Of a DNA stretch of 64,000 nt, positions 1 to 45,693 are shown piece after piece. The notes below the pieces were generated by a model, which saw only the letters and a list, made by a program, of their open reading frames with translations, searched no databases and was not told where the DNA came from. Source of the stretch: a virus; the IMG/VR virus record IMGVR_UViG_3300045988_184146. One strand, given 5' to 3'. The translations under genes were made by a program, and so were the position numbers. The first letter of the stretch is position 1; every line of letters starts with the position of its first letter.

Positions 1-178
1 GGGTTACACGGGAAGTTAAGCTTGTGGACTGTTATATCAAATGAGAGTAGACTTTATATTTCAAAGTATAAAGACAAAATCAGACAGGTTGAAGCAAGAA
101 GAATTTTTAAAAATAATTTAGAAAGGATCGTAAAATATACATTTTGGTATATTTTATGTAACAGTTTTATATTCTCTA

Positions 179-6743: not shown

Positions 6744-6830
6744 CAATTAAAGGACTAGACAGTCCTTTTTCTGTTATAATTAAAGAAATAAATTTATCTG
6801 GAGTTATTCCAGTAGAAAGAAGGAAAGAGT

Positions 6831-10398: not shown

Positions 10399-10551
10399 TA
10401 AAAACTTAAATAAAAATAAAAACTAAGATCGTTGCGAAATACATTCGTGGCGGTCTTTTTTTTGTATATATATAAGAATATAGTTGCAAATATCCTATAA
10501 TACAAAAGAGTGAAGAATGATAAACAATAAAAATTTCGTGAGGGAATAAAT

Positions 10552-12546: not shown

Positions 12547-12650
12547 TATTTTAAAATAAAAGATTATCACTAAATAAGTTTAGTGATAATTTTTTTATAA
12601 AAAAAAATTATTTTTATTAAGCTATAATAGAGAGAGAAATAAAAAAAGGA

Positions 12651-14483
12651 ATGGTATTTATCTTGAATAAAAGAAAATTGTCATCTATTTTGGCTACTGG
12701 TGCATTAATGGTAACGGTGGCCCCTGCATTAGGAACATTTGTACAAGTAGGTAATAATATCGCACACGCAGAAGTTTTCAAAGCCGGATCTACTGGAACA
12801 CGAACGATTAAATTTAATGTAAAAGCTGGAGAATCAGTGACCTCAAAGACTGAAACTGTTACAGAGCCAGTTGATTTGATTCTCGTTGTGGACGGATCTG
12901 GATCTTTCACAGAACCTTTTAATGATGGTAAAAATCCATCTCGAAGAAAATTCCAAGCTGCTCTTATTGACGCTGCGAAGTTAGTTGAATCTCTACCAGA
13001 GGGCTCTCAGGTTATGATTGCTTCCTATACTTGGAATACGACAGAATCTTACACATCTAATAGAATCACCAATTTGATTCCTAAAGCGGACGCTGCTAGA
13101 ATTTTGAAAGATATCCTAAACAAACCATCTGATTTAGACTGGTATACAACTTGGGAAAGATACTTATCTGATGTGGATAAAAAGATTTACAGCTCTTACG
13201 AAAAATTACCATACGAAGAAGCATACGAGAAAAGTACTGCCAAGAAAAACAAGTACGTTTCTGTAGTACAATTCACAGATGAATGGGTGCCTAATGAGGA
13301 TATTGATACATCTTTCGCTGAGTGGTCTAAGAAGAATGCGAAGACCTTTATGAGCGTCATTTACAACAAGACTGATAACCCTGCAATTTCTGAAGCTCAG
13401 ATGAAGAAAATCGGACATCCAAATATTTATAACGCACGTGGAAAAACTGACGATCAACGTCAAAAGGATATCGTCGAAAAATTTAAAACATCAGGTTTGA
13501 AAACAACAGTTATTAAAAATCGAGTTTCACCAGATGGTGTTGTGACAGTTAAAGCCGAAAAAGGTGTTGATATCACAGAGGTTGAATTAGTATCTCCTAA
13601 AGGAGTAAAAGAAAAACTTGAAAAGCAACCAGGTGACGCAATCTCTTGGTCTTGGAAGGGTAAATTTGCTGAAGATGGAGAATATACTCTAAACTACAAG
13701 TTTACTGGTACACCATCAGAAACAAAATCAATTACTGGTACTGTTCAAGTCTCAAATAAAGAGGTAGCGAAAGCTGTTGATACAATTGAACCTAACAAAT
13801 CTTCTGATGTCGATACCGCTAAAGAGGACATTCCTTTTAAAACGATTGAAGAAAAGGATCCAACACTTCCATTTGGTGAACGTAAGGTTAAGGTTAAGGG
13901 TGTTCTCGGTGAACGCACGATTACAAAGACATACGATGTTCTTAATGGAAAACGTGTGGGTGATCCTAAAGTTGATACCAAGGTTACAAAAGAACCAGTT
14001 GACGAAGTTGTTCTTGTTGGTACTAAGGTAGAAGAAAAAGTAACTTACAAGACGATTCATAAAGGTGACGATGGTAAGATTCTCAAGGAAGAAAACATCG
14101 CAGCTGAAAAGTCAGAGTTCGAAGGGTACAAGTACGTTAAAACTGAAGCTGACAACTCAGACAAGTTGAATGTTGTGACAACTCACCACTACCATAAGCT
14201 CACCACAACCTACAAGGGTGTTGATGAAAACGGCAAGGAAGTTATTTTAGAAAAAGTTGACGGAACTAAGGACAAGAAAGACTTCAAGGGTTACATCTTC
14301 GAAAAGACAGAAAAATTAGACAACGGTGACGTGGTTCATCACTACAAGGCTAAAAAAGCTGATGAGAAGAAAAAACCAGTAGAAACTGGAGCTTCAGCTG
14401 GATCAATGTTACTTCCAATTGGTGCACTAGGAGCCTCTGTTGCTCTTGTTGGCGTCGCTAAGTTTAAATCTAAAAGAAAATAA
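12651..14483 (+). CDS. surface protein with vWA domain (DLILVVDGSGSF MIDAS motif), G5 domain and C-terminal PVETGAS sorting signal + TM + KSKRK
   Basis: signal peptide; vWA and G5 motifs recognisable; alternative start at conserved downstream TTG (12663). Confidence 0.85.
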   Translation: MVFILNKRKLSSILATGALMVTVAPALGTFVQVGNNIAHAEVFKAGSTGTRTIKFNVKAGESVTSKTETVTEPVDLILVVDGSGSFTEPFNDGKNPSRRKFQAALIDAAKLVESLPEGSQVMIASYTWNTTESYTSNRITNLIPKADAARILKDILNKPSDLDWYTTWERYLSDVDKKIYSSYEKLPYEEAYEKSTAKKNKYVSVVQFTDEWVPNEDIDTSFAEWSKKNAKTFMSVIYNKTDNPAISEAQMKKIGHPNIYNARGKTDDQRQKDIVEKFKTSGLKTTVIKNRVSPDGVVTVKAEKGVDITEVELVSPKGVKEKLEKQPGDAISWSWKGKFAEDGEYTLNYKFTGTPSETKSITGTVQVSNKEVAKAVDTIEPNKSSDVDTAKEDIPFKTIEEKDPTLPFGERKVKVKGVLGERTITKTYDVLNGKRVGDPKVDTKVTKEPVDEVVLVGTKVEEKVTYKTIHKGDDGKILKEENIAAEKSEFEGYKYVKTEADNSDKLNVVTTHHYHKLTTTYKGVDENGKEVILEKVDGTKDKKDFKGYIFEKTEKLDNGDVVHHYKAKKADEKKKPVETGASAGSMLLPIGALGASVALVGVAKFKSKRK

Positions 14484-14599
14484 AAACTAATTTATAAGTT
14501 ATAAAAAGGTATCTAAATTGGATACCTTTTTGAATTTTTAAAACCACTAAGAATATCGAGATATGATAACCTATAATAGATAAAGAAATAAAAAAAGGA

Positions 14600-16438
14600 T
14601 TGGTACTTATTTTGAATAAAAAATTATCATCTATCTTGGCTACTGGTGCATTAATGGTTACTGTATCGCCAGCACTTGGAACTTTTGTTCAGGTTGGCAA
14701 CAACATCGTACACGCAGAAGCCTTTAAAGCTGGTTCTACCGGGACACGAACATTAAAATTTAATGTTAAAGCTGAAGAAAAAGTAAATACAAAAACCGAG
14801 ACTGTAGCTGAACCGGTTGACTTAATTATGATTATTGACGGATCAGGGTCTTTTATTGTTCCTTTCGATAGTGGAGACAATCCACAGAGACAAAAAGTAA
14901 ACGTGGCGTTAAGTGACGCTTTGAAACTTGTAGAATCTCTTCCTGAAGGATCACAAGTTATGATTGCCTCTTACACTTGGAACTCAAAAGATTCTTACGC
15001 AGCGAAAGGTGTTAGTAATTTAATTTCAAAGGCTGACGCCATCAAAACTCTTAATGATATCAAGGACAAATCAAAACTATCTGATTTTGACTGGTACACA
15101 ACTTGGGAGAATTATCTTAAGACTGTAGATTCAAAAATTTACAATAAAAATTCTGAAACTCTTCCATACGAAGAAGCATACGAAAAGAGCACAGCTAAAA
15201 AGAACAAGTACGTATCTGTAGTTCAATTTACAGATGAGTGGATTCAGAACGAAGACATCGACACCTCTTTTGCTGATTGGTCTAAGAAGAATGCGAAGAC
15301 TTTTATGAGTGTCATTTATCCTAAAATTAATGGAAGTACAAAGTCTGAAGAGCAGATGAAAAAAATCGGACACCCTAATATTTACAACGCTCGTGGAAAA
15401 ACTGACGCAGTACGACAAAAAGATATTATTGAAAAATTCAAAAGCTCTGGTTTGAAAACAACTGTCACCAAGGATCGTATTTCTCCTGACGGGGTTGTAT
15501 CTGTTAAAGCAGAAGACGGTGTAGATTTGACGGAAGTTGAGTTGGTATCTCCTACTGGAGCAAAGAAAAAACTTGAAAAAAACTCCGGTGACGCAACATT
15601 TTGGTCTTGGAAAGGCAAACTAGAAGAAGATGGTGAGTATACACTTAATTACAAATTTACGGGTACACCTTCTGAGACTAAAACTATTACAGGAAGTGTG
15701 CAAGTTTCAAATAAAGAAGTGGTAAAAGCAGTTGATACGATTGAGCCTAACAAGTCAAGTTCTGTAGATAAATCAGAAGAGGATATTCCTTTTAAAACGA
15801 TTGAAGAAAAGGATCCTACACTTCCACTGGGAGAACGTAAGGTTAAAGTTAAGGGTGAAATCGGTAAGAAATCCACCACTAAGACTTACAATATGGTGAA
15901 CGGTAAACGTGTGGGTGATCCTAAAGTTGATACCAAGGTTACAAAAGAACCAGTTGACGAAGTTGTTCTCGTTGGTACCAAAGTAGACGAAAAAGTAACT
16001 TATAAGACTATTCACAAGGGTGACGATGGTAAGGTTCTTAAAGAAGAAAACACTGCTGCCGAAAAATCCGAGTTCGAAGGATACAAGTACGTTAAAACAG
16101 AATCTGATAATTCGGATAAGTTGAACGTCGTGACAACTCACCACTACCATAAGCTCATCACTACCTACAAGGGTGTGGATGAAAACGGCAAGGAAGTTGT
16201 TTTAGAAAAAGTTGACGGAACTAAGGACAAGAAAGACTTCAAGGGTTACATCTTCGAAAAGACAGAAAAATTAGACAACGGTGACGTGGTTCATCACTAC
16301 AAGGCTAAAAAAGCTGATGAGAAGAAAAAACCAGTAGAAACTGGAGCTTCAGCTGGATCAATGTTACTTCCAATTGGTGCACTAGGAGCCTCTGTTGCTC
16401 TTCTAGGAGTTGCTAAGTTTAAATCTAAAAGAAAATAA
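14600..16438 (+). CDS. surface protein, tandem paralogue of 12651..14483 (about 80% identical, 3' 250 bp nucleotide-identical)
   Basis: same domain order; alternative TTG start at 14612 giving MNKKLSSILATG signal peptide. Confidence 0.85.
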   Translation: MVLILNKKLSSILATGALMVTVSPALGTFVQVGNNIVHAEAFKAGSTGTRTLKFNVKAEEKVNTKTETVAEPVDLIMIIDGSGSFIVPFDSGDNPQRQKVNVALSDALKLVESLPEGSQVMIASYTWNSKDSYAAKGVSNLISKADAIKTLNDIKDKSKLSDFDWYTTWENYLKTVDSKIYNKNSETLPYEEAYEKSTAKKNKYVSVVQFTDEWIQNEDIDTSFADWSKKNAKTFMSVIYPKINGSTKSEEQMKKIGHPNIYNARGKTDAVRQKDIIEKFKSSGLKTTVTKDRISPDGVVSVKAEDGVDLTEVELVSPTGAKKKLEKNSGDATFWSWKGKLEEDGEYTLNYKFTGTPSETKTITGSVQVSNKEVVKAVDTIEPNKSSSVDKSEEDIPFKTIEEKDPTLPLGERKVKVKGEIGKKSTTKTYNMVNGKRVGDPKVDTKVTKEPVDEVVLVGTKVDEKVTYKTIHKGDDGKVLKEENTAAEKSEFEGYKYVKTESDNSDKLNVVTTHHYHKLITTYKGVDENGKEVVLEKVDGTKDKKDFKGYIFEKTEKLDNGDVVHHYKAKKADEKKKPVETGASAGSMLLPIGALGASVALLGVAKFKSKRK

Positions 16439-23574: not shown

Positions 23575-23704
23575 TTTATTCCCTCTTTCTAGAGTGCGGT
23601 ATACACTCAATATCAATATTTTTAAAATTATAGAAGAATAAACAAGACTGTTATAATTAAAGAAAAAAATAGTAACTTTAAAAGTTACAGAAAGAAGGTA
23701 AATA

Positions 23705-25291: not shown

Positions 25292-26587
25292 TTAGATAAA
25301 ATTCTTCTTTTCCAAGAATTTCAAACCATCAATAATGTTGTTAATAGATTTTATTTTTTTACTTAAAATAGATCTATTTTTCTTGTCCTTGATTTGCTGT
25401 TCTATCGATTTATCTTTATCAACTAAATTATTGATACCTTTATAAATTTTTAGAAAAATATAATAATTCAAAAGTTCTTTTGAACAGATTACTTTATCAA
25501 CCTCTCCAAAAATTGGAACATAAAAATCCTCTATTTTTCTATCCGATAAATAAGCGAGCTCTTCTGAAAGACCTTTTATTTCCAGGATACCTTCTTCAAT
25601 AAATTCAGTCCAAAGTCCCACGTCAATATTTTTATTGTATTCGGTTATTTTTTCGTAAATAAAATCATTCTCTTTGTCGTAATGATTTTGTAGGCAAAAG
25701 TCTAGAATAAATTTAAATTGATTTTTCTTAAACAAATCTAGATAGTATTTATCATCTAAAAAATAAACAGATAGATAATCAACAAAAAGAGAAAAATTGA
25801 ATGCGTTGAGTGTTGGAGTTGAACCCTTTCTCTTGTGATAATCAATAAATTTATTTAAAAAATTGCAAACATCATCTCTTGTCTCAAATAAATCCATCAA
25901 GATTCCATCAATAACAAGTTCATCGATTGGATATCCAATTTTACAGAAAAACGAATCCCAATTTTTTTCATTTTGTAACAATTCTAATGTCAATCCTGTT
26001 AAGGAGAAGTTTTTTGTTTCAGCATTATTATAATACCAACTGAGAGCTCCGTAAAATTCCTCTGAGCACTCATCCAAGAAAAATTTTGCAAAATGATCTA
26101 CAAATTTTATCCGGATATCCTCATTGTAGGGATATTTAGAATTTTCTTCGTCTGATAAGGGAATTATATTTAAAATCTTCATACGCTTTTTATTACCCTC
26201 ATCACCTTGGGATGAGTTTTTAAAAATATTCATCAGATTAAATGCGTGCTCATCAACAACAGGATTTAATGATGTTGCACGATTCCGCAACTCAATACGA
26301 AGAGTTTCAATGGATACGTGATCGCTACAAGATAAAATATCATTCAGACTGTTCCCGTAAGAAACTGCAACAAATCTATCAAGTGGGTAATCAAAACTCT
26401 TTGATGTTAGGTAGAAATTATTGTCTACAAAACAAAACAAAATGATTGGTGAGTTTCCGCCAACGCCAGCCTCTACTATCGATTTTGGGAAGAGATTTTC
26501 TGTTGGTAGCAATAATTTTGCACCGTTATTAACAGCGTCAAGAACCATCTTGTCTATTTCCAACCGAAAATTTCCTGTTTCTTTCAT
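25292..26587 (-). CDS. hypothetical protein, family with 32867..34108 and 36106..36447 (shared N-terminal domain)
   Basis: 431 aa; its promoter module directly abuts the left end of IS copy 1. Confidence 0.8.
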   Translation of the reverse strand: MKETGNFRLEIDKMVLDAVNNGAKLLLPTENLFPKSIVEAGVGGNSPIILFCFVDNNFYLTSKSFDYPLDRFVAVSYGNSLNDILSCSDHVSIETLRIELRNRATSLNPVVDEHAFNLMNIFKNSSQGDEGNKKRMKILNIIPLSDEENSKYPYNEDIRIKFVDHFAKFFLDECSEEFYGALSWYYNNAETKNFSLTGLTLELLQNEKNWDSFFCKIGYPIDELVIDGILMDLFETRDDVCNFLNKFIDYHKRKGSTPTLNAFNFSLFVDYLSVYFLDDKYYLDLFKKNQFKFILDFCLQNHYDKENDFIYEKITEYNKNIDVGLWTEFIEEGILEIKGLSEELAYLSDRKIEDFYVPIFGEVDKVICSKELLNYYIFLKIYKGINNLVDKDKSIEQQIKDKKNRSILSKKIKSINNIIDGLKFLEKKNFI

Positions 26588-26658
26588 TTTAATACCTTCT
26601 TTCTACTGAAATAAATTCAGATTTATTATTTCTTAAATTATAAAAGTAAATTCAATTC

Positions 26659-28225
26659 TATTATTTATATTTTTATTTATTTTTGTATATTTTTAATTCA
26701 ATTTTTGAATCGAATTTGTTATTTTAACTATTTTATGATATAATAAGTTAATAAATAAAAATTAGAAAAGGAGGTAGTGGTGAGACAGGTAGAAAGACAT
26801 TTAATTAAACCTGGCAATGGTTTATACACAATTTGTGATGATTTAACATTTAAATCTAAAAATCTTTATAACGCTGGATTGTATCAAATTCGCCAATCCA
26901 TATTCGAACGAAACAAGTATGATAAGGAAAATAAAAAACCAGTACTAAGCTGGTCACAATTAGTTTCTGAATTTAGAAAACAAGATCAGACCGATATGAA
27001 AGCATTACCATCTAAGGTTTCAACTAATATCATAAAAATGTTAGGCGGAAATATCAGCTCGTATTATCAGCTTTTGAAAGGTTATAATGATAAGTCCAAT
27101 AGGAAAATAGCGAATAAGCCAAAGATTCCGGGATATTTACACAAAAAAGATGGTCGTTATGTAGTTGAGTTCACAAACCAAACTTTCGCTAAAAAACGTG
27201 GCGAAAATAACGAACTTATCTTATGCCCAAAGGATCTGAGAATCTCAATTCCAACAAAAGTTGATAACCCAAAATGTGTCAAGATAATTCCTAAAAATGG
27301 TTATTTTTTTATTGATGTTATTTACGAGGTTAAAGAAAAGTCTTTGAGAAAGACTCAAAAATACGCCTCAATTGACCTCGGGGTTGATAATTTAGCTTCG
27401 GTTACATTTTCTGATGGAACTAACCCACTTTTAGTTAAGGGTTTGAAGGTTAAACATATCAATCAAGGATACAACCGTCTAATAGCAAAATCTCAATCAA
27501 AATTACCAAAAAATCAAAAAACAAGTAAGCACATCCACCGTCTTTTTAGAAATCGTGAGATGAAATTGCAATCAGAATTTCATAAAATTACAGGATTTCT
27601 AGCAGAATTTTTCGACGAGATGGCACTTGAAAAGGTTTTTGTTGGTAAGAATGTTGGTTTGAAGTCCGGTATTTCTATAGGGAGAAGAGGAAATCAAAAT
27701 TTTGTCCAAATTCCATATAATAAATTCATCTCTCAACTTAAGTACAAGTGTCAGTTGCGAGGAATAGAAGTTGTAGAACAGGAGGAGTCTTATACATCCA
27801 AGGCTAGTTTTATAGACTGTGATGTTATCCCTGTTTGGAAAAACGATGGCAAAAAGTATAAGTTTTCAGGAGTACGTGAGAAAAGAGGTTTGTATAAAAC
27901 TAAAAGCGGGAAACTTATTAATGCTGATGTTAACGGTTCTTACAATATCCTAGTTAAAGGTTTGAATAATTTAGGTATCAATTTAAAAAGAGATAAGGTG
28001 TCATTCCACACGAGAAGTTTGACTGGTTATAATATCTTGTCTAATAAAAAGTTAATAGAAAAATACACGTAAACCTGTATTTGGTATTTACCAAAGAGGG
28101 CTTATAGAGGTGTTGTAGGACGCCTTTAGCAAAATCAATAAATCAAATTTTATTGTAGTATGTTAAGAATTAAATGATACAGATTATAACAATTTATACA
28201 TTTGTATAAACCATTTAAACCTATA
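26659..28225 (+). mobile_element. IS200/IS605-family, tnpA-less TnpB element, copy 1 (about 1.57 kb)
   Basis: boundaries from where the two copies stop being alignable (left after AATTC; right after AAACCTATA). Confidence 0.7.
26780..28072 (+). CDS. tnpB: TnpB (OrfB) RNA-guided endonuclease-like transposon protein
   Basis: RuvC-I ASIDLGVDN, C-terminal NADVNGSYNI RuvC-III motif, zinc-finger region; GTG start (ATG in copy 2). Confidence 0.9.
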   Translation: MRQVERHLIKPGNGLYTICDDLTFKSKNLYNAGLYQIRQSIFERNKYDKENKKPVLSWSQLVSEFRKQDQTDMKALPSKVSTNIIKMLGGNISSYYQLLKGYNDKSNRKIANKPKIPGYLHKKDGRYVVEFTNQTFAKKRGENNELILCPKDLRISIPTKVDNPKCVKIIPKNGYFFIDVIYEVKEKSLRKTQKYASIDLGVDNLASVTFSDGTNPLLVKGLKVKHINQGYNRLIAKSQSKLPKNQKTSKHIHRLFRNREMKLQSEFHKITGFLAEFFDEMALEKVFVGKNVGLKSGISIGRRGNQNFVQIPYNKFISQLKYKCQLRGIEVVEQEESYTSKASFIDCDVIPVWKNDGKKYKFSGVREKRGLYKTKSGKLINADVNGSYNILVKGLNNLGINLKRDKVSFHTRSLTGYNILSNKKLIEKYT

Positions 28226-28245
28226 CGTTAATGAAATTCTTATCT
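28073..28245 (+). ncRNA. probable right-end/omega-RNA (reRNA) region of the TnpB element
   Basis: about 150 nt conserved between copies downstream of tnpB stop, diverging exactly at the element boundary. Confidence 0.3.
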
Positions 28246-28256
28246 GAGAATTTTAA

Positions 28257-28424
28257 AAAATCTATGATGAATTTATTGGCTTCTTAACAGAAGAAGACGG
28301 TGGTGATTACCAAAAAGCATTTGAGTTTTTCAAATACGGTGTCGAAAATGGAACGTTATCTAACTTTACTAACACAAAATACTTATCTGATTTCATCATC
28401 AAGATGGCGGATCATCTTAAAAAG
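28257..28424 (+). pseudogene. start-less C-terminal gene remnant (56 codons, ..EFIGFLTEEDGGDYQKAFEFFKYG..) abutting IS right end
   Basis: open frame begins at a stop immediately after the IS boundary; higher GC; weak similarity to the remnant next to copy 2. Confidence 0.3.
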
Positions 28425-28470
28425 TAAAAGGAAAGCCTTTTACTTTTTTATTTCAAGGACGCATACTTTT

Positions 28471-28530
28471 GCTATTATAATTTAAGAAATAATAATTCTG
28501 AATTTAATTCAGTTAGAAAGAAGGAAAATA
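28471..28530 (+). promoter_or_regulatory. expression module exemplar: TATAATTTAAGAAA (28476), hairpin CTGAATTTAATTCAG (28498..28512), SD, ATG 28531
   Basis: conserved architecture. Confidence 0.6.
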
Positions 28531-30336
28531 ATGGTAGTAAAAAGTAATTCTATTTCAACAGAACGAGAATCGGAACCGGTTCGTTGGGAAAGAATTGATA
28601 AAATCAAATCCTTAATTAAGGGCAAAAAAATCACAGTATCTGAAGATAATATAGATTTTTTACTTAAATTACTAAAAGGATTCACTTCCCCTTGGTATCC
28701 AAGCGAAAATTCACTAGATGGAGTTTATTTTAGCAAATTCCAAATTTGGTATAGTTTCTTAGAAGATAAGATTATTTTAATCAAAGGTGAAAGGTTGGAT
28801 GATATTCAACATCAGAACGTTTTGGATAAAGATGTCCTATATTTAGGTATTTTCAATCTAAATCAGTCGAGAAAATCTAAAAAACTTGTAGAGTGTTATT
28901 CATTAATCGAATATAATGATTCTTGGGGTATGAAAAAGAAGGGGATTCAATTAACCGATGAGGATTCAGCTAAGAAATTTATCGTTGAATACTTGACAAA
29001 AAGAGTTCGTGAAAAACTTAAATTAGTTTGCGAACGACTGGTTTTAAAAGATGAAACTTTTCTTCATAGTGGTGTTCTAGGTACTGAAGGTTTACTTACA
29101 TCACCTAAAAGAGATATTAAATTTATTTTCAATACACCTTTATCGTTACTAAAAAAGAAGGAACGAGAATGGATGTATAGATATTTATTTTTTGAAACAG
29201 CCGATCCGTTAAAATCAACCTCCAACTATGACGGAGAATTAAAGGTTGTTGAATCTGAGTCTTGGGATTATCTGTCAACTTTTCGTGAAGAATTTAACCA
29301 ATATTTATCGGATATTAAAACTGATATCGTTAATATGTTTGTTCAAGCAAATAGTTACACAGGCTTAAAAACTATGTCTACACGAAGTGAACTTCTAGGA
29401 CTTCTCTGTAATTGGTTTAGAAAATATTTCTTTACTGAAGAAGCTGGTGTTTTCTACCTAAAGGATTCTAGTGTATGTTGCGAAAATCTTTATTTCGAAG
29501 ATAGCAAGTACTATTCTAATCAAATTGCTTTTATTGAATTATTAGGAGAGATAGCTAGATCTTCATTTAATAGTAATGCAGAAAATGTTGTTTTAGGATT
29601 AGCGGAAATTACAGGTGAACTTGCAGGTGGACGATTTATGAACTCGGCTATGAGTACTTTAAATTTGTCAACATCATTCTTTTTCTCTACAGGAACGAAA
29701 GGAAAATTTGTTCAGCTTTTATTCAGTAAGCTACTTGAATCCTCAACAAAAGATTTTAACAAAAAAGAACTTGAAAGTTTGGTTTATGATTTTCAAAATG
29801 GTATTACCATTGGTAAGGTTGGGCGAGGCTCTGTATTTCTTGGCGACGCATACAATAAAAAGTTGATTTTGGAAGAGCTGGACTCATTCATCAAGAATAA
29901 AGAACTCGATAAATTAAGAGAATTTAACCTCGACATTGATTTGGTGTATAACCTTACAAGTAAAAATAATTCTATTACGTTTGGTTACTCAACTGTGGAT
30001 CTTGCGATTTTAAAATCCATATCCAATAATATTCCGGTTAAGATAGGTGGTTCTCTTTTTATAAGGCTTGAGTTTGAAACAATCCTTAAATTGTTAATTG
30101 ACGAAGTTGATTTTAATTATCAATCTACTATGGATCACATCAAAATAATCAAAGAAATTAAAGATAATAATCCTGGAAAAGTAAAAGTGATTCTTGAAAA
30201 TTCAGAACCAGAATTGTTTTCAAAACAAATTGATTATTTAAGGGTTGGAATTGAGAATGGAATTTATGACGAATTTGAAAAGCCTAAAATTTTACTTGAA
30301 TTTATCAACCTAATTTTAGAATTGATGAAAAACTGA
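28531..30336 (+). CDS. hypothetical protein (601 aa), paralogue of 31098..32837
   Basis: shared internal motifs and C-terminal G(I/L)YDEFE(K/S). Confidence 0.8.
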   Translation: MVVKSNSISTERESEPVRWERIDKIKSLIKGKKITVSEDNIDFLLKLLKGFTSPWYPSENSLDGVYFSKFQIWYSFLEDKIILIKGERLDDIQHQNVLDKDVLYLGIFNLNQSRKSKKLVECYSLIEYNDSWGMKKKGIQLTDEDSAKKFIVEYLTKRVREKLKLVCERLVLKDETFLHSGVLGTEGLLTSPKRDIKFIFNTPLSLLKKKEREWMYRYLFFETADPLKSTSNYDGELKVVESESWDYLSTFREEFNQYLSDIKTDIVNMFVQANSYTGLKTMSTRSELLGLLCNWFRKYFFTEEAGVFYLKDSSVCCENLYFEDSKYYSNQIAFIELLGEIARSSFNSNAENVVLGLAEITGELAGGRFMNSAMSTLNLSTSFFFSTGTKGKFVQLLFSKLLESSTKDFNKKELESLVYDFQNGITIGKVGRGSVFLGDAYNKKLILEELDSFIKNKELDKLREFNLDIDLVYNLTSKNNSITFGYSTVDLAILKSISNNIPVKIGGSLFIRLEFETILKLLIDEVDFNYQSTMDHIKIIKEIKDNNPGKVKVILENSEPELFSKQIDYLRVGIENGIYDEFEKPKILLEFINLILELMKN

Positions 30337-30411
30337 GGGGGTATCATTCCTCCTCTTTTATAATTTAAGAAATAAAAAAATCTGAATTTATTTCAGTAGA
30401 AAGAGGGAAAA

Positions 30412-30957
30412 ATGGTTTTAAACACAAAAACAGAAGAATCTTCTCAGTTTGAACAGATGAAGCAAATAAAAGATATCATCCAAAAAGGAGAATATCCACT
30501 TTCAGAACAATTTATGGATGTTGTTAGGTTATCTATTAAGAAGCTAAACAAATATCCTTATGTTCGTGTTGAAGCTGGATCTGTAGGTGAATTGAAGTTG
30601 CCTGTTTTTATTATTTATTACTTCTGTGAAACAAACACATTTGAAATTTTTTCAAAATATGAAATCGATTATCTTCCGAGTTTTACCGAAGATTTGTGTG
30701 TGAATCAGCCTATTTTATTGGGTGAATTACATTTAAACGCAAGTCGTGATACTAGACAGTTTAGGGCAATTTTTGGAAAAAGCCTGCTAAGTGGATCAGA
30801 AAATCGAAAATTAGAAGTCAACGATTATTATCTTGATAGATTTATAAATTACAAATTCAAAAGTTTTATTAAGAAAAAATTGTTGTCAATTTATCAAGAT
30901 TTTTTGAATAAGGGTGATTTTCCGAGTATTATTACATCGGAAAATCTTGACTACTGA
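30412..30957 (+). CDS. hypothetical protein (181 aa)
   Basis: module upstream, terminator AGAAGAGUU..AACUCUUCU downstream. Confidence 0.75.
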   Translation: MVLNTKTEESSQFEQMKQIKDIIQKGEYPLSEQFMDVVRLSIKKLNKYPYVRVEAGSVGELKLPVFIIYYFCETNTFEIFSKYEIDYLPSFTEDLCVNQPILLGELHLNASRDTRQFRAIFGKSLLSGSENRKLEVNDYYLDRFINYKFKSFIKKKLLSIYQDFLNKGDFPSIITSENLDY

Positions 30958-31097
30958 TGAGTTTCCAGATATTATTACTCGATAATAAAAAAGAAGAGTT
31001 CAAACTCTTCTTTTTTTATTAAAGATTTTATTCTCTAATCTGTTATAATTTAAGAGAATAAAAATAAAACTATTTAAATAGAAAGAAGGAAAACAAA

Positions 31098-32837
31098 ATG
31101 ATTAAAACATCAGGTTCCAGCAAGATGGAGACTATTAAAAAGATTAAGAATGCTTTTGAGCGTGTATCCAAATCTGACTTCAAATTCAGCAAAGAAAATG
31201 TCAAGGATCTATGCTTGGCAATCTATAGCTTCGAAGATGATGGTACATACCTTAACAAAGAGGAGGGATCTTTAAAAACTTTAATTTTTAAAAAGATCGA
31301 CGTTTGGTACTTATTCGACACAGAAGAGTTTCTCTTCAAGATGAGTGGCATTCCACGCCAAAAACTAGAGCAACAAGCTATCAAGATCGGAACTATCAAC
31401 TTTAACAAAAACAAGGGTTCATCATTGTTGAAGGACGCTTTCGGTTTATCTTTGTATAAAAATAAATTTGGATCAATTGATCCAAAAATTGAAGACAAAG
31501 ACATCCTGAAAAAGTTTGTTGAGAGCGCAGCTAAGAAATTTGTTGTAAAAAATCTGAAAGAACTTTATCGACAATTGTTAGAATACGAATCAACCTACTC
31601 TAATAACTTCTTAGATAAACCAACTGAACACTGGGTTCGTTCAGGTAATTTTCCAGTCCCGCTTTGTCTTTTAAGTGAAACTGAACGAGATGAAGCCCTC
31701 AAAACTCTAATCTTCACTGAATCTACTTCAGAAAAGTGGACACACGCCTTAAAATTATCAGTAGATGGTTTTGAAATAATGAATCAGAATCTTCTCTCAT
31801 ACACAAAACCTTTTGAAGAATATGTCAAATCTTTTGTGAAGAAAGAACAGGATAACTTTGTTGACAATTTAATTCCTGAAATTGATTCAACAGATAAATA
31901 CAACAACTCGAAGTTGAGATTGAACTATATTTCTAAATATTTGTATAGTTTGTATACAAAAGAAGATCTTTACGATAGCTTCGATGATGAAGAAAAGTTG
32001 AATCAAAAATTGGAATCTCTTGGTATGCAATTTGAAGAGATCTTAGAAGATACCGACAATTTCATTCTTTATTTATTCAAGGAACTGTCAAAGCGTAGCC
32101 CAGGTTACGGTATGAAGTTTTTATTATACATCCTAGATGATGGTTATTATCATCTATCAAGCCATATATCTAAACATTCTAGAGTTGGTTATGGTTACGG
32201 TTATAATAATAAAGATTCGCAAATAAAATCTGCGTTTAACAAGATTTCTAATCACGTGCTAGATTTTATTGAAGCTAAAATTGACAGTCGTGATGATCTC
32301 CTATCAGAATATGTTGCGTTTGAAGAAAGTTACGCTTCAAAAAAGAAAGAGCGACACTACTACGGATCTAGAGCTTTTGATCCCAGTGATTTATTTGTTA
32401 TCAAAATTAAATCAAGATACAAGGACGAGTCTTTGAAGGTTGTGAGTAGCTTCAAGGTTGAAAAGAAATTGAAGTACGAATCAACAATTCTTATCAAGAA
32501 ATTTGATGATTATGAAAAACGCATACTTCAGATGATTAATTTTGGTAAGGAATTGTCCTTTTCAGAACCTGTAATTTTTGGATTCAAATTTGAAGATTTG
32601 ATAAATCTAATTACTGTAAAAGTCGACGAAACTGATGATCGTGTTAAATTATTCGAACATCTTCTGGATCAATATAAGGATAATCTGACTGTTCTAATTC
32701 CAGATGGTGAAACATCTGAACAGTTTAAGAAGAAGATTGGCTTATTCAGCGAAAGTATCGATTCTGGTCTGTACGACGAGTTTGAATCAATTTCAGTTTT
32801 GAAGACAATCCTAAAAATCTATCTTGCAAAAATCTAA
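31098..32837 (+). CDS. hypothetical protein (579 aa), paralogue of 28531..30336
   Basis: module with hairpin CTATTTAAATAG; bidirectional terminator at 32840..32866. Confidence 0.8.
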   Translation: MIKTSGSSKMETIKKIKNAFERVSKSDFKFSKENVKDLCLAIYSFEDDGTYLNKEEGSLKTLIFKKIDVWYLFDTEEFLFKMSGIPRQKLEQQAIKIGTINFNKNKGSSLLKDAFGLSLYKNKFGSIDPKIEDKDILKKFVESAAKKFVVKNLKELYRQLLEYESTYSNNFLDKPTEHWVRSGNFPVPLCLLSETERDEALKTLIFTESTSEKWTHALKLSVDGFEIMNQNLLSYTKPFEEYVKSFVKKEQDNFVDNLIPEIDSTDKYNNSKLRLNYISKYLYSLYTKEDLYDSFDDEEKLNQKLESLGMQFEEILEDTDNFILYLFKELSKRSPGYGMKFLLYILDDGYYHLSSHISKHSRVGYGYGYNNKDSQIKSAFNKISNHVLDFIEAKIDSRDDLLSEYVAFEESYASKKKERHYYGSRAFDPSDLFVIKIKSRYKDESLKVVSSFKVEKKLKYESTILIKKFDDYEKRILQMINFGKELSFSEPVIFGFKFEDLINLITVKVDETDDRVKLFEHLLDQYKDNLTVLIPDGETSEQFKKKIGLFSESIDSGLYDEFESISVLKTILKIYLAKI

Positions 32838-32866
32838 AACAAAAAAGAGGCTTTAAAACCTCTTTT

Positions 32867-34108
32867 TTAATTTTCGTGAATTTTACTAAAATTACCCGAA
32901 GTTTCAGCAAGATTCTCGTTGATCTTTTTCAAAGATTTCACTAAAAACTCATTTCCCTGTTCGGACAACTGTTTGTTAAATAGAACCAAAATTTTTAATG
33001 CAATATTAAACTCAATATATTCTGTATTAAATCTAGAGAGATCTGATTCAAACGTTGATTTTCCAAGATCTCCTCTATCTAACCTTTTTTGTAATGAACT
33101 TTGATAATTTTTTAGATACTCAGAGTGTCTCTCCATTTTATTAATTAAAATTTCAAGATCAACTATTTCAAGTCTTTTTTCTTCTACAAGTTTTTCAAAA
33201 TCCATTTTAAAAATTTCATCCTTAAAATTTTCAAAATAATCCTTGTTAAATTTTGGAGTAACTTTTAGTTTTAAATTTGGATCTTCGAATAACTTGATAA
33301 AATCATCGCCTAATTCATTAGCGATTGAAATTAAATCTGCAACAGATATTTCGTTGTATTCTAATAATAAGTTTTTGTAAAAGTTTAACAGGCTAAATTC
33401 AGGAATTTTCTTTGAAATTGAAAATAGAAGATTCTTTCTACCAAGTGGGTTTGTTAAATTTTTAAATAAAAATAATAACTTATCTTCACTATTTATAAAG
33501 TTTAAGAAAAAATCCTTTAATCGTGTGGTAAACCAACCTTTTTCAAGTGAAATTATTGCATACTTAGTTTCACCTTTGAAAAACACATCAAACACAAAAT
33601 CCTTGAGTTCAACTTCAAAGTCACTGTTTGTGTTTGAAAACTTGTATCGTCTCAAAGCTGTCCTAAAGTTCCTTTCCTCCAAATCTAAATTAAAGTTCTT
33701 CGAATCATAATATTTGTGATATTTGAAAATTAATTGATAAAAGTCATCACAAGAAAAAATTCCAAACTTTCCCTCTGAGAACCTCGTTAATAAAAGATTC
33801 CTAATTAGTTCTGCGGTTAATACGTCCGGAATCTCATACCCGTATTTTTCTTCATCAAAAAGTACAACAAACTTATCACTTGGAAGAGCTCCTCCATTTG
33901 ATAAAAGATAAAATTTATTGTTATCTAAGCAGAATACTACTTTTTGAATATTCTTTGCTTTGAATTTGATAAATTCATCATCAAACACTTCACGATCCGG
34001 AAGATTTAAAAACTGTTCTCCAGAATCGACGTAGGAATCAATAGACTCCAATACTTTCTGTTCTAATCTCAGCAGAAGACTGTCATTATTGGTTTTGATC
34101 ATAAACAA
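32867..34108 (-). CDS. hypothetical protein (413 aa), same family as 25292..26587
   Basis: N-terminal domain alignable with 25292 and 36106 products. Confidence 0.8.
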   Translation of the reverse strand: MFMIKTNNDSLLLRLEQKVLESIDSYVDSGEQFLNLPDREVFDDEFIKFKAKNIQKVVFCLDNNKFYLLSNGGALPSDKFVVLFDEEKYGYEIPDVLTAELIRNLLLTRFSEGKFGIFSCDDFYQLIFKYHKYYDSKNFNLDLEERNFRTALRRYKFSNTNSDFEVELKDFVFDVFFKGETKYAIISLEKGWFTTRLKDFFLNFINSEDKLLFLFKNLTNPLGRKNLLFSISKKIPEFSLLNFYKNLLLEYNEISVADLISIANELGDDFIKLFEDPNLKLKVTPKFNKDYFENFKDEIFKMDFEKLVEEKRLEIVDLEILINKMERHSEYLKNYQSSLQKRLDRGDLGKSTFESDLSRFNTEYIEFNIALKILVLFNKQLSEQGNEFLVKSLKKINENLAETSGNFSKIHEN

Positions 34109-34193
34109 TCCTTCTTTCTTTTATTTTTTTTAAAAATTATACCAAAAATAAAAATTGGAAGTTCTACTAAACCTCCAATTTTCTTATAAATAA

Positions 34194-34508
34194 TTATTCG
34201 ATATTGTTATCTGACAATAATTTTTTGAAATTTTCTTTATCAAAATTAAATAGACTACTCCACTCTTTTTCTAGGTATTCGAAAATCCAATCCCCAAAAG
34301 TTGATTTCCCTAAACTCTGAAGAAATTCCAGGAGCTTATTTTCATCTGTTACAAAATCAGATAAAACTTTTGAAAAGTCTGAGTTTGAGTTTTTATTCAA
34401 AGTCTGAGAGTATGGTTTGGATTTCAGGTGTTTCACAACAAGGCTATCAGAACCTTTGAACAGTAGATTATAAACGAAATTTTGCAAGCTAAGTTTGTAA
34501 TCACTATC
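34194..34508 (-). pseudogene. C-terminal gene remnant (open from the IS copy-2 right-end boundary; internal TTG/97-aa ORF 34194..34487)
   Basis: frame opens at a stop right after the IS boundary; contains LGKSTF segment resembling the C-terminal region of 32867..34108 product. Confidence 0.4.
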
Positions 34509-34531
34509 TTACTTTGAAAGTTCGTAAAATC

Positions 34532-36096
34532 TATAGGTTTAAATGGTTCATACAAATGTATCATTTATTATCATCTGTATCATTTAATTCTTAACATTCC
34601 ACAACAATATTTAAATTATTGTTTTTGCTAAAGGCGCCCCACAACACCTCTATAAGCCCTCTTTGGTAAATACCAAATACAGGTTTACGTGTATTTTTTT
34701 ATTAGCTTTTTATTAGACAAGATATTACAACAGTTCAAACTTCTCGTATGGAATGACACCTTATCTCTTTTTAAACTGATACCTAAATTATTCAGGCCTT
34801 TAACCAGGATATTGTAGGAACCGTTAACATCAGCATTAATTAGTTTTCCGCTTTTAGTTTTATACAAACCTCTTTTTACACGCACCCCTGAAAACTGATA
34901 CTTTTTGCCATCATTTTTCCAAACCGGAATTACATCAGAGTCTATAAAGCTAGCTTTGGATGTGTAAGATTCCTCCTGTTCTACAACTTCTATTCCTAGC
35001 AACTGACACTTGTACTTAAGCTGAGAAATGAATTTGTTATAGGGAATTTGAACAAAATTTTGATTTCCTTTTTTACCAATGGAGATACCGGACTTCAAAC
35101 CTACGTTTTTACCAACAAAAACCTTTTCAAGTGACATCTCGTCGAAAAATTCTGCTAAAAATCCTGTAATTTTATGAAATTCTGATTGCAATTTCATCTC
35201 ACGATTTCTAAAAAGACGGTGGATGTGCTTACTTGTTTTTTGATTTTTTGGTAATTTTGATTGTGATTTTGCTATTAAACGATTGTATCCTTGATTGATG
35301 TATTTAACTTTCAAGCCCTTTACTAAAAGTGGGTTTGTTCCATCAGAAAATGTAACAGCAGCTAAATTATCGACTCCGAGGTCAATTGAGGCGTATTTTT
35401 GAGTCCTTTTTAAAGATTTTTCTTTAACATCGTAAATAACATCAATAAAAAAATAACCATTTTGGGGAATTATCTTAACACATTTGGGGTTGTCAACTTT
35501 TGTTGGAATTGAGATCCTCAAATCTCTTGGACATAAGATAAGTTCATTATTTTCACCACGCTTTTTAGCAAAAGTTTGGTTTGTAAACTCAACCACATAC
35601 CTACCTTCTGTCTTGTGTAGATATCCTGGGATCCTCGGCTTATTTGTTATTTTCTTATTTGACTTATCATTATAACCTTTTAAAAGCTGATAATATGAAC
35701 TGATATTACCTCCCAACATTTTTATGATATTAGTTGAAACCTTAGATGGTAATGCTTTCATATCGGTCTGATCTTGTTTTCTAAATTCAGAAACTAATTG
35801 TGACCAGCGTAGTACTGGTTTTTTATTTTCCTTATCAGATTTATTTCGCTCGAATATAGATTGACGAATCTGATACAATCCAGCGTTATAAAGATTTTTA
35901 GATTTAAACGTTAAATCATCACAAATTGAATACAAATTACTACTAGGTTTAATTAAATGTCTTTCTACCTGTCTCATTACTACCCCCTTTTCTAAAATTT
36001 TTTTATTAACTTATTATATCATAAAATATTTAAAATAACAAATTCGACTAAAAATTGAATTAAAAATGTACAAAAATAAATAAAAATATAAATAAC
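34532..36096 (-). mobile_element. IS200/IS605-family tnpA-less TnpB element, copy 2 (inverted relative to copy 1)
   Basis: about 95% identical to copy 1 over its whole length including 5' and 3' non-coding parts. Confidence 0.7.
34685..35977 (-). CDS. tnpB: TnpB (OrfB) protein, copy 2
   Basis: 430 aa, >95% identical to copy 1; ATG start. Confidence 0.9.
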   Translation of the reverse strand: MRQVERHLIKPSSNLYSICDDLTFKSKNLYNAGLYQIRQSIFERNKSDKENKKPVLRWSQLVSEFRKQDQTDMKALPSKVSTNIIKMLGGNISSYYQLLKGYNDKSNKKITNKPRIPGYLHKTEGRYVVEFTNQTFAKKRGENNELILCPRDLRISIPTKVDNPKCVKIIPQNGYFFIDVIYDVKEKSLKRTQKYASIDLGVDNLAAVTFSDGTNPLLVKGLKVKYINQGYNRLIAKSQSKLPKNQKTSKHIHRLFRNREMKLQSEFHKITGFLAEFFDEMSLEKVFVGKNVGLKSGISIGKKGNQNFVQIPYNKFISQLKYKCQLLGIEVVEQEESYTSKASFIDSDVIPVWKNDGKKYQFSGVRVKRGLYKTKSGKLINADVNGSYNILVKGLNNLGISLKRDKVSFHTRSLNCCNILSNKKLIKKYT

Positions 36097-36105
36097 GAAT
36101 TAACC

Positions 36106-36447
36106 TTAAATAATACGATTAACAATAATCTTCGCAAACTCCTCGGCGTTTACTACGATATCAGTCATCTCTTTTTGAAAATCAAGAATAGAATCGTAAA
36201 GAGTTACAAACTGATCGATTGGCAAAAGTTCTCCCGAGTTCACACAGTAGAACTTGTCATTAACAATGCAGAATACAATTTTCGAACTTCTGTGACCCAC
36301 TCCGATTCTCATTTTATCAGGCGGGAATACACCCTTTTCCGGAAAATTAAGGAATTGATCTCCAGATTTTGAATATTGATCTAAAACCTTAAGAACGTGC
36401 TTTTCTAATTCTAAAAGAAAATTATTATTTTTGTTTGTTGCAATCAA
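36106..36447 (-). CDS. short member (N-terminal domain only, 113 aa) of the 25292/32867 family; stop codon 4 nt from IS copy-2 left end
   Basis: aligns to residues about 5-115 of the 413/431-aa paralogues; possibly truncated by the insertion. Confidence 0.6.
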   Translation of the reverse strand: MIATNKNNNFLLELEKHVLKVLDQYSKSGDQFLNFPEKGVFPPDKMRIGVGHRSSKIVFCIVNDKFYCVNSGELLPIDQFVTLYDSILDFQKEMTDIVVNAEEFAKIIVNRII

Positions 36448-36592
36448 ATAAATGGCCCTCTTTCTAAAACTGTAAAAGTTTGTTTTTTTCTAAATTTATA
36501 AAATCGGATGAGAATCCCCCCTCTTTTTGTTGCAAAAAATTCAATTTTTTGATATAATATAAGAAACAAAAATATAGAAAGAAGGAATTAAA

Positions 36593-44292: not shown

Positions 44293-44398
44293 TTTTTCAC
44301 CTTCTTTCTAAAATTATTACAGTTTTCAAATATTTCTTAAATTATAACAGAACTGACCGACATCAATGTCGGTCAGTTAAAAACTTAAATTAATATAG

Positions 44399-45387: not shown

Positions 45388-45693
45388 CTACAAATTGTTA
45401 ACCAACAACTCTTTTACCAAAAGGAGTCTATTTTCAGTCTTTTCCAACCACTCCGGCAAATCATCGTCAGGTTTCCACGAATATTTTTTCTCTAGCAAGG
45501 ATAGTTGTGCTTTGTCTCCAAACTCCATATTCTCGGACAACCAACGGACGAAATCTGTATCAGATAAAGTGTAAATCATTACGGTTAGATTTTCTGGGTT
45601 AATATCTGCTCCAAAATTGGGCCAGATAACTTTCAAAAAGTCATAAACTTTTTCTGGAGCAACAAGTTGTGTATTACCTTTCGAACTTTTCAT
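45388..45693 (-). CDS. small hypothetical protein (101 aa) sharing promoter/SD/first five codons with 44399..45358
   Basis: local duplication of the translation-initiation region. Confidence 0.6.
   Translation of the reverse strand: MKSSKGNTQLVAPEKVYDFLKVIWPNFGADINPENLTVMIYTLSDTDFVRWLSENMEFGDKAQLSLLEKKYSWKPDDDLPEWLEKTENRLLLVKELLVNNL

Follow-up and report, generated by a model that had tools for sequence, protein, structure and literature searches.

Two TnpB-only elements of an oral replicon as probable transposase-less derivatives of an IS607-family transposon

Insertion sequences (ISs) of the IS607 family form a double-stranded DNA circle by means of a serine recombinase, possess neither inverted repeats nor hairpins, make no target duplication and carry their core dinucleotide inside the transposon-adjacent motif (TAM) (bioRxiv 10.1101/2023.11.20.567912). 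TnpB proteins have been proposed as agents of homing, in which RNA-guided cleavage of an empty site leads to the element being copied back (PMC8612924, PMC10055086, bioRxiv 10.1101/2023.11.20.567912). It has been an open question whether members of the IS1341 group are autonomous (PMC9956272). Inocles, giant extrachromosomal elements of oral Streptococcus, were named partly for their ISs, of which there are about nine per Inocle-alpha contig; the main text of their description neither types these ISs nor mentions TnpB (PMC12340149). Inocles are circular, measure about 350 kb and have as their marker gene InoC, with a replication-relaxation domain. Here we analysed a 64,000-nucleotide window (the whole stretch of DNA considered, from IMG/VR virus record IMGVR_UViG_3300045988_184146), in which two TnpB elements, copy A (26661..28224, + strand) and copy B (34533..36112, − strand), face each other across 6.3 kb of host genes. 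Comparison with relatives indicates that both are very probably non-autonomous derivatives of an IS607-family element from which the serine transposase gene, tnpA_S, is missing.

The repeat pair, its nuclease and its ends

A repeat search of the region returned two inverted arms of 1535 nt (26691-28225 and 34532-36066; 91% complementary) and a further pair of arms at 26661-26706 and 36050-36095. When the arms are aligned pairwise, similarity begins at 26661 and 36095 and stops at 28225 and 34532, giving repeats of 1.56–1.58 kb that each hold one intact TnpB gene (431 aa in copy A, 430 aa in copy B). Because only 116–133 nt separate the left end from tnpB, neither arm can house a transposase gene. 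The preliminary description of this locus had reported an inverted pair of TnpB elements without tnpA, and this is confirmed by the repeat search, the pairwise alignment, and the Pfam and NCBIfam matches given below. It had also called the copies near-identical, at about 95%; the measured identity is 91% overall (93% in the left non-coding part, 91% in the open reading frame (ORF) and 91% in the 3′ non-coding part), and the two tnpB genes are separated by a dS of 0.42 with dN/dS of 0.08. The two repeats are old, separate insertions, each made independently and in a different host gene. That one copy arose from the other by recent duplication, which we also considered, is rejected on this dS and on the existence of a separate empty allele for each copy.

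The tnpB gene of copy A (26777..28072, +) starts with GTG, with the counterpart of copy B's ATG start at 26780, while that of copy B (34685..35977, −) starts with the ATG. Ahead of each lies a predicted promoter-like site, TTGTTA-17-TATAAT, found in copy A by a consensus scan (26716..26744, +; with TG before the −10 hexamer) and in copy B by sequence match to the copy A site (36013..36041, −); it is kept in all left-end alignments. Both ORFs match Pfam OrfB_IS605 and Cas12f1-like_TNB, and both pass the NCBIfam model NF040570 (guided_TnpB, RNA-guided endonuclease TnpB family protein) with 134 bits for copy A and 129 bits for copy B against a cutoff of 100, the match spanning positions 5-388 of 389. 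In an alignment of 14 sequences with identity down to 35%, the RuvC triad of D200 (IDLG), E336/E337 (EESYTS) and D384 (ADVNG) is invariant, both window copies included. A single-sequence search of the PDB with TnpB gave no match; a profile of the family matches the solved ISDra2 TnpB structures 8BF8, 8EXA and 8H1J, and Cas12f. The CxxC...CxxC zinc finger of the TNB domain is absent between the RuvC II and III motifs in both copies and in all clade members aligned, although the Pfam TNB model aligns end to end despite this absence. Given that the curated TnpB family model was passed, we treat the missing zinc finger as an apparent clade variant and not as grounds for exclusion from TnpB.

To place the ends of the elements, 41 related loci were fetched with 3-kb flanks and about 35 copies were compared by blastn. 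The right end is sharp, with all copies terminating in ...CCATTTAAACCTAT and the next base variable (about 30 copies); the right ends ...CCTAT fall at 28224 in copy A and 34533 in copy B. On the left, most copies possess 17 bases beyond the stretch common to both window copies, with GTAT before them (NNGTAT/TATTTAAGGTTAATTCGTTATTTATA..., the slash marking the junction), and NNGTAT is found at at least 13 independent left junctions. The consensus ends of the element are accordingly GTAT/TATTTAAGG...AAACCTAT/. Two clean pairs of empty and filled alleles were available: L048 reads CCAGAGTAT/ATTTAGACG where L015 reads CCAGAGTAT/TATTTAAGG...AAACCTAT/ATTTAGGCG, and L023 reads TTGTAT/AGAAAATTAC where L064 reads TTGTAT/GATTTAAGG...CCTAT/AGAAAATTAC. 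Neither pair has a target duplication. At six further sites the right-flank DNA lies directly 3′ of (G/A)TAT in the empty allele and, on the strength of these sites and the two pairs, we take the target motif to be GTAT. The target, the left junction (G-TAT) and the right end (C-TAT) all contain the trinucleotide TAT, which would be the shared recombination core. No extended inverted repeat was seen between the left and right ends, and a subterminal hairpin sought in the left end had no covariation support (consensus fold −3.95 kcal/mol, zero compensatory pairs).

Once defined from about 30 copies, the ends coincide only in part with those first proposed for the window copies: the right ends stand, one base further in than first stated, and the left boundaries of both copies do not. 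For copy B the left end moves outwards by 17 nt, to 36112, and the GTAT motif of its left junction occupies 36113..36116 (−), as judged from the junctions and empty alleles; copy B is thus a complete TnpB-only element of 1,580 bp, TATTTAAGG...AAACCTAT, placed by about 30 copies and by filled and empty pairs. The apparent left end of copy A at 26661 is no IS terminus. Comparison of the window with L048, in which the host gene (a 582-aa gene that we call gene X) is intact, and with the canonical left end reveals a deletion junction with TTAT microhomology (26661..26664, +), and copy A, an IS607-type TnpB-only element truncated at its left end by comparison with L038 and L048, lacks GTAT and 17–21 nt of the left end (IS positions 1-17/21). 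The motif AATTC, shared just outside the two left boundaries first drawn and proposed there as a target or TAM, is replaced by GTAT: AATTC is part of the left end itself (GGTTAATTCG), and its position there differs in register from one copy to the other.

Transposase and family

The pair had been placed in the IS200/IS605 type, whose transposase is of the Y1 kind. Among the window ORFs of at least 100 aa, no match to Y1_Tnp or Resolvase was obtained, so that the Y1 tnpA looked for was not found there, and tblastn with three IS607 transposases gave zero matches in the window. Complete relatives of the two copies point to a different family. P0032, a TnpB 90% identical to that of copy A, is encoded on contig ERZ27320304 k141_183387 (L064). 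Upstream of this tnpB, and overlapping it by 35 nt, is a 218-aa ORF with an N-terminal helix-turn-helix (HTH) and a YARVSSSEQ serine motif, which scores 197 bits against the NF033518 IS607 family transposase model (cutoff 110). The element measures 2,151 bp, with the junctions TTGTAT/GATTTAAGG...GCCATTTAAACCTAT/; its left side reads TTGTAT/GATTTAAGGTTGACCC...TTATATTTTTATTTATTTTTGTATATTTTT and its right side ...GCCATTTAAACCTAT/. The first ~60 bases of its left end and the terminal 14 nt of its right end are shared with the window copies, copy B having both and copy A being without the left tip.

A second complete copy, L028, encodes a TnpA_S 87% identical to that of L064 and resides on BNJV01002830.1 (374 kb), a contig syntenic with the window across 20.7–41 kb. 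More distant complete elements, with TnpB 68% and 53–55% identical, retain GTAT, the ATTAA..GTTAAT.C tip and CCATTTAAACCTAT, and relatives at ~40% identity, one of them from a cyanobacterial metagenome-assembled genome (MAG), have TnpA_S upstream of tnpB. A serine transposase upstream of tnpB and overlapping it is present in the closest complete relatives, L064, L028, L054, L058 and L060, and is absent from both window copies; when the flanks of the complete elements L054, L058 and L060 were compared at the protein level, neither the window nor any other locus matched them. Three loci of a subfamily whose TnpB is 68% identical to that of copy A (L055 3834..4026, L056 2180..2372 and L057 1212..1404) have the last ~70 codons of tnpA_S alone left upstream of tnpB, and would represent an intermediate stage of transposase loss. 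Since the window copies have no serine transposase and their closest relatives do, we file them as non-autonomous derivatives and not as autonomous members; their descent from an IS607-family element by loss of tnpA_S is, as judged from these relatives, highly probable.

The family first proposed would correspond to IS1341-type members of the Y1 IS200/IS605 group, moved as single-stranded DNA by a Y1 TnpA encoded elsewhere. Such an origin would accommodate the presence of tnpB alone between left and right ends, as in the IS1341 group (PMC9956272), the Pfam domain name OrfB_IS605, and insertion 3′ of a short motif without target duplication. We nevertheless consider it very improbable, because every complete relative found, from 90% down to ~40% TnpB identity, has an IS607 serine transposase overlapping tnpB, the window ORFs searched include no Y1 gene, the left end is devoid of a covariation-supported subterminal hairpin, and TAT is common to the target, left junction and right end in the manner of a serine-recombinase core. 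The IS607 family, defined by a serine recombinase, is the assignment that we retain.

Insertion sites, guide RNA and proposed homing

Relatives of the bracketed segment (L047-L053 and L066) were retrieved through its central gene, which encodes the 181-aa protein, each with flanks of 10 kb; they represent seven contigs besides the window's. Neither insertion is present in any of them. Their usual gene order is 431 aa (−), the 582-aa gene X (+), 602, 177 and 578 aa (+), 415 aa (−) and 259 aa (−), continuing with a 613-aa G5/SSSPR-51 gene (−) and then 185, 208 and 475 aa (+). The exceptions are L047, which is without gene X, L066, which is without the G5 gene, L053, which stops short of the left flank, and L052 and L053, in which a 501-aa G5-domain gene replaces the 415- and 259-aa genes. 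The 602-, 177- and 578-aa genes occur in all of these relatives, in the same order and orientation as their counterparts in the window, where the bracketed genes (28531..34108, by synteny with the relatives) encode 601, 181 and 579 aa on the + strand and 413 aa on the − strand. PHROGs returned no match for the bracketed genes. Because order and orientation are kept in relatives without either insertion, the bracketed genes are read as backbone: the 6.3 kb between the copies appears to be ancestral, conserved replicon DNA, neither cargo nor a mobile island.

The preliminary description had suggested that the bracketed genes could move or invert as a composite unit, and this view is corrected by the same comparison. 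Inverted repeats of 1.56 kb with 91% identity could in principle allow homologous inversion, yet the notion that the copies delivered the 6.3-kb segment, or can move or flip it, is scarcely credible: in the insertion-free relatives the bracketed genes keep the same order and orientation with respect to both outside flanks, no inverted arrangement was seen among the relatives from the seven other contigs, a separate pre-insertion allele exists for each copy, the left recombination site of copy A is gone, and the inverted pair puts a left end at each outer boundary in place of a left and a right end.

Copy A lies in gene X, the third paralogue of a 580–600-aa protein family, whose uninterrupted form in L048 reads ...TTGTAT/ACGTTAATG at the position of the right junction. 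On its left side, ~1.08 kb of gene X, the promoter of gene X, GTAT and IS positions 1-17/21 have been deleted, fusing host DNA upstream of the gene X promoter to IS position 18; with this loss of its left recombination site, copy A is no longer open to recombination at that end. On the right, 59 nt of gene X are left before a 525-nt deletion (after 28283), and the gene X 3′ remnant (28225..28467, +) corresponds by blastn to L048 7255-7313 and 7839-8002. Copy B splits the 259-aa gene into an N-terminal fragment, a 113-aa ORF whose stop codon comes from the IS left end (36106..36447, −; from the ORF list and the empty-allele comparison), and a C-terminal remnant (34194..34532, −; identified from the empty alleles in L015, L019 and L047-L051), with 112 nt of the gene gone on the left side relative to the empty alleles. 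Copy A thus appears to have destroyed the 582-aa paralogue and copy B the 259-aa gene, each a member of a paralogous gene family.

The host loci vary in further ways. L038 carries a different insertion in gene X, with its right junction at CGGTAT, 645 nt further downstream. In L047 (7986..8117) neither gene X nor an IS stands between the 431- and 602-aa genes, where two divergent promoter cassettes (~130 nt) are found instead; lineages thus differ in whether they retain gene X, have an IS in its place or lack it. At window position ~36515..36519 and in BNJV01002830.1 (L066), ~2.1 kb between the 259- and 185-aa genes is missing (compare L048 14608..16727), a segment that in other relatives contains the 613-aa G5/SSSPR-51 surface-protein gene and the GTAT site of the L015-type insertion. 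The 431-aa (25292..26587, −), 413-aa (32867..34108, −) and disrupted 259-aa (36106..36447, −) proteins have similar N-termini (for example LELEKHVL..SG.QFLN.P) and constitute a replicon-specific family of paralogues that neither Pfam nor PHROG matches; the same holds for the 580–600-aa proteins.

The conserved block 3′ of tnpB had been proposed as the scaffold of the guide RNA (omega RNA), and here the analysis bears the proposal out. The alignment took in 33 distinct copies, each represented by its final 230 nt and by 16 nt of flank. The RNAalifold consensus is a scaffold of 156 nt from the stop codon onwards, with 44 pairs in seven helices; it occupies 28069..28224 (+) in copy A, from the stop codon at 28069 to the right end ...AAACCTAT, and by shared alignment and structure 34533..34688 (−) in copy B. 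Of all cells, 99.2% are paired, compensatory changes occur in five of the seven helices, and the 54 double-change cells observed compare with 15.7 in shuffled alignments, none of 500 of which reached the observed count. When the 3′ partners are slid by 1–3 columns, pairing falls to 35–55%, and the single-sequence fold has z = −3.3. An alternative last hairpin gave a poorer fit. Rfam held no family matching the 3′ block at E values up to 5. Conservation stops sharply at CCTAT, beyond which the flanks differ among copies. These properties support a covariation-backed guide-RNA scaffold.

That the guides would come from the differing right flanks also stands, with their starts moved one base earlier than first given, to ACGTTAATG... 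in copy A and AGATTTTACG... in copy B. The guide predicted for copy A, ACGTTAATGAAATTCTTATC (28225..28244, +), has an exact match directly 3′ of TTGTAT in L048-L051, where gene X is intact. For copy B, the predicted guide, AGATTTTACGAACTTTCAAA (34513..34532, −), is the first 20 nt of the C-terminal fragment of the 259-aa gene and recurs exactly, immediately after TTGTAT, in insertion-free relatives. In the window the sole match of each guide is its own donor site, with CTAT before it, and this G-to-C difference is the likely basis of self-avoidance.

We propose that the complete parent element, of about 2.15 kb with TnpA_S overlapping tnpB, would insert at GTAT without target duplication. The window copies would then retain a left end with its own promoter (truncated in copy A), an intact TnpB and a 156-nt scaffold that reads into ~20 nt of host flank. 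Where other copies of the replicon share the cell or enter it, TnpB with its RNA may cleave their insertion-free alleles, defined by GTAT and a guide match, and recombinational repair from the occupied allele would copy the element in; the donor site would escape because its right end reads CTAT and not GTAT. The occupation of new sites would require TnpA_S provided in trans by a complete copy, such as that on the syntenic 374-kb contig. Copy B would potentially be mobilisable in this way and copy A, with its left recombination site deleted, would not. Both homing and mobilisation in trans are inferred here by analogy with described systems.

Several points weigh against this picture. The NCBIfam IS607_TnpB exception model matched weakly, at 21 bits, and for this reason IS607 membership rests on the associated transposase and the ends. 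The window itself holds no tnpA_S. The nuclease activity of TnpB is a prediction, and GTAT as TAM is predicted from the junctions. Between sites, including sites on the same contig, copies always differ by at least 4% and by up to 24%, mostly by 8–24%. Finally, the ratio of Inocle_004 to S. salivarius in saliva was estimated at 1:15 in the Inocle description (PMC12340149), which leaves uncertain the co-residence of two allelic replicon copies that homing requires.

The ORF of 430–432 aa is intact in about three quarters of copies, the broken ones being mostly in long-read assemblies whose accessions begin with BNJ. Copies at least 97% identical always occupy the same site in different genomes, and the divergence between sites is comparable to that of the replicon backbone (~12–15%). 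Recent transposition was rejected, no pair of copies at different sites being more than 96% identical; yet conservation extends over the ORF (dN/dS 0.08) and the non-coding ends. Copies at different sites do undergo homologous exchange, as indicated by L012 (1..1634), which combines the left side of the L006 site, both flank and left-end variant, with the right flank of the L013 site.

Eight independent sites have an empty counterpart: those of copies A and B, L011, L013/L014, L038, L023, L015 and L064. The right junction is exact at all eight, and simple insertion is seen at two. The remaining six have lost host DNA on the left side of the element (112 nt to ~1.66 kb), and three of them (copy A, the L013 type and L023) have lost 17–65 nt of the left end as well; in L038 the tip has diverged. 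The upstream deletion endpoint usually falls in the 5′ region of the disrupted gene, gene and element being co-directional, and the promoter-like site of tnpB is never lost at the eight sites. We prefer to read the left-side loss as ordinary deletional decay of a dead gene, filtered by selection at the level of the element, which would protect the promoter, ORF, scaffold and guide-matching flank. TnpA_S-mediated deletion between the left core and upstream TAT pseudo-cores is a possible cause, as is recombination between two direct insertions. Two-site insertion was rejected as a general mechanism of replacement, given the two clean simple insertions, and is possible at individual sites. As a separate observation, L018 (ERZ773267.3) and L036 (OEEJ01000006.1) have an IS in almost the same place in opposite orientation with partly swapped flanks, an arrangement that may be an inversion with one endpoint at the right end.

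The preliminary description had left a choice between non-autonomous passengers of a transposase encoded elsewhere and domesticated RNA-guided nucleases. The first of these is favoured. Domestication, in which immobile TnpB–guide RNA loci would be kept for the benefit of the replicon by cutting competitor variants or regulating genes, would agree with the deep divergence between sites under strong purifying selection, with the several lineages, copy A included, that have an intact ORF and scaffold and no left end, and with guides that match alleles of other variants of the same replicon. It remains unlikely in our view: the RuvC triad is intact and no nuclease-dead truncation is seen, the guide is simply the flank, as in selfish homing, most copies keep the left-end tip and GTAT, which are relevant to transposition alone, and both window insertions are absent from every relative examined and so are polymorphic, not fixed. 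The cutting of competitors and homing would, moreover, look alike in sequence. We tentatively entertain the possibility, well short of an even chance, that in these giant oral replicons TnpB–guide RNA loci persist for long periods without a transposase as homing (drive) alleles or as weapons against sister replicons. If this were true, selection would protect only the tnpB promoter, ORF, scaffold and guide-matching flank, and erosion would affect the left recombination site and the upstream part of the disrupted host gene. The left-side deletions at six of the eight sites could be explained in this way.

Replicon context and comparison with known systems

Among public contigs, one encodes the TnpB of copy A; it is 255,898 bp long and comes from a human oral metagenome (ERR589458, k127_19558). 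Close TnpB relatives are found on 340–390 kb contigs from saliva metagenomes. The window has a GC content of ~32% and contains genes for tandem G5/SSSPR-51 surface proteins, a toprim/DUF3991 protein, thymidylate and guanylate kinase-like proteins, a RecD2-like helicase, a GyrB-like protein and a DNA polymerase-like protein. On the basis of sample, GC content, genes and relatives, the replicon is most likely an Inocle, a giant plasmid-like element of oral Streptococcus. It resembles the Inocles as published (PMC12340149) in its oral metagenomic source, ~32% GC, relatives of 340–390 kb, and genes for a RecD-like helicase, gyrase, sortase, sigma factor and surface proteins. In the phage collection the sole match was 185 nt, at 68%, to a transposase gene of Bacillus phage G; the plasmid collection gave no match and IMG/VR no relative. 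The GTDB genomes yielded ~40%-identity relatives alone, in one cyanobacterial MAG and one uncultured bacterium, and the TnpB family is therefore absent from the species-representative genomes.

Several features of the window lie apart from the elements. No tRNA genes were found in it, and its only Rfam match is a RAGATH-18 RNA (RF03064) at 21..100 (+), with 72.5 bits against a gathering score of 44.9. A promoter-leader cassette precedes many genes and consists of TATAATTWAAGRAA, a short hairpin (often CTG...CAG) and then AGAAAGAAGG. Exact copies lie at 6775..6823 (+), 23652..23698 (+), 26595..26642 (−), 28476..28524 (+) and 44300..44346 (−), five matches against none expected by chance, with looser copies near 30355, 31029 and 37835; the cassette is often the left flank of TnpB insertions in relatives, and looks like a replicon-wide expression signal. 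Four tandem paralogues of 610–664 aa occupy 8497..16438 (+), three of them with SSSPR-51 and two of these also with G5; the fourth has a weak MucBP match alone, and a further G5 protein is encoded at 59376..60524 (+). By their domains the G5/SSSPR-51 genes appear to be a variable, adhesin-like gene family. At 45388..45693 (−), a 101-aa protein corresponds to the DpnD N-terminal domain (Pfam PF23117, E = 3e-33).

If these assignments are correct, at least one IS family of the Inocle-like oral megaplasmids can be typed as an IS607-type TnpB family, and its exact ends, GTAT motif, TAT core and non-Rfam scaffold are usable for annotation. The family would be a compact (430 aa), zinc-finger-less TnpB with an AT-rich TAM, open to testing. 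It also offers a natural series, from the complete element through a decaying tnpA_S to TnpB-only copies and then to TnpB-only copies without a left end.

This series bears on the IS1341 group (PMC9956272). The window copies resemble its members in architecture only, with a single tnpB between the ends and a low copy number per replicon. Unlike in that group, the origin is here resolved, to an IS607-type parent minus tnpA_S, through the 90%-identical complete relative and the decaying tnpA_S remnants. To the question of whether TnpB-only (IS1341-like) elements are autonomous or decayed, the present lineage would answer that they are decayed IS607 elements.

From ISDra2 TnpB and the G. stearothermophilus IS605 system (PMC8612924, PMC10055086) come parallels for the nuclease. 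Common to these and the present family are the RuvC nuclease, a guide that is the flank past the right end, a TAM equal to the transposase target motif, and cleavage of the empty site, proposed here from sequence alone. The present family differs in the type of its partner transposase, in its low sequence similarity, in having no zinc finger and in a scaffold that is not in Rfam.

The nearest systems are the IS607 elements with TnpB, namely H. pylori IS607 and the C. botulinum CboIStron/IS607 (bioRxiv 10.1101/2023.11.20.567912). The core and TAM are TAT and GTAT here, in contrast to GG and TGGG there; the TnpB here belongs to a clade without the CxxC zinc finger; no group I intron was detected here (no Rfam match); and the window copies are without tnpA_S, copy A also being without its left recombination site. 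In complete relatives, as in those systems, a TnpA_S with HTH and resolvase domains overlaps tnpB, terminal inverted repeats and target duplications are absent, and a short core within the TAM is common to the target and both junctions. In both, a 3′ guide RNA reads into the flank, and copies without TnpA occur together with complete copies on a large plasmid.

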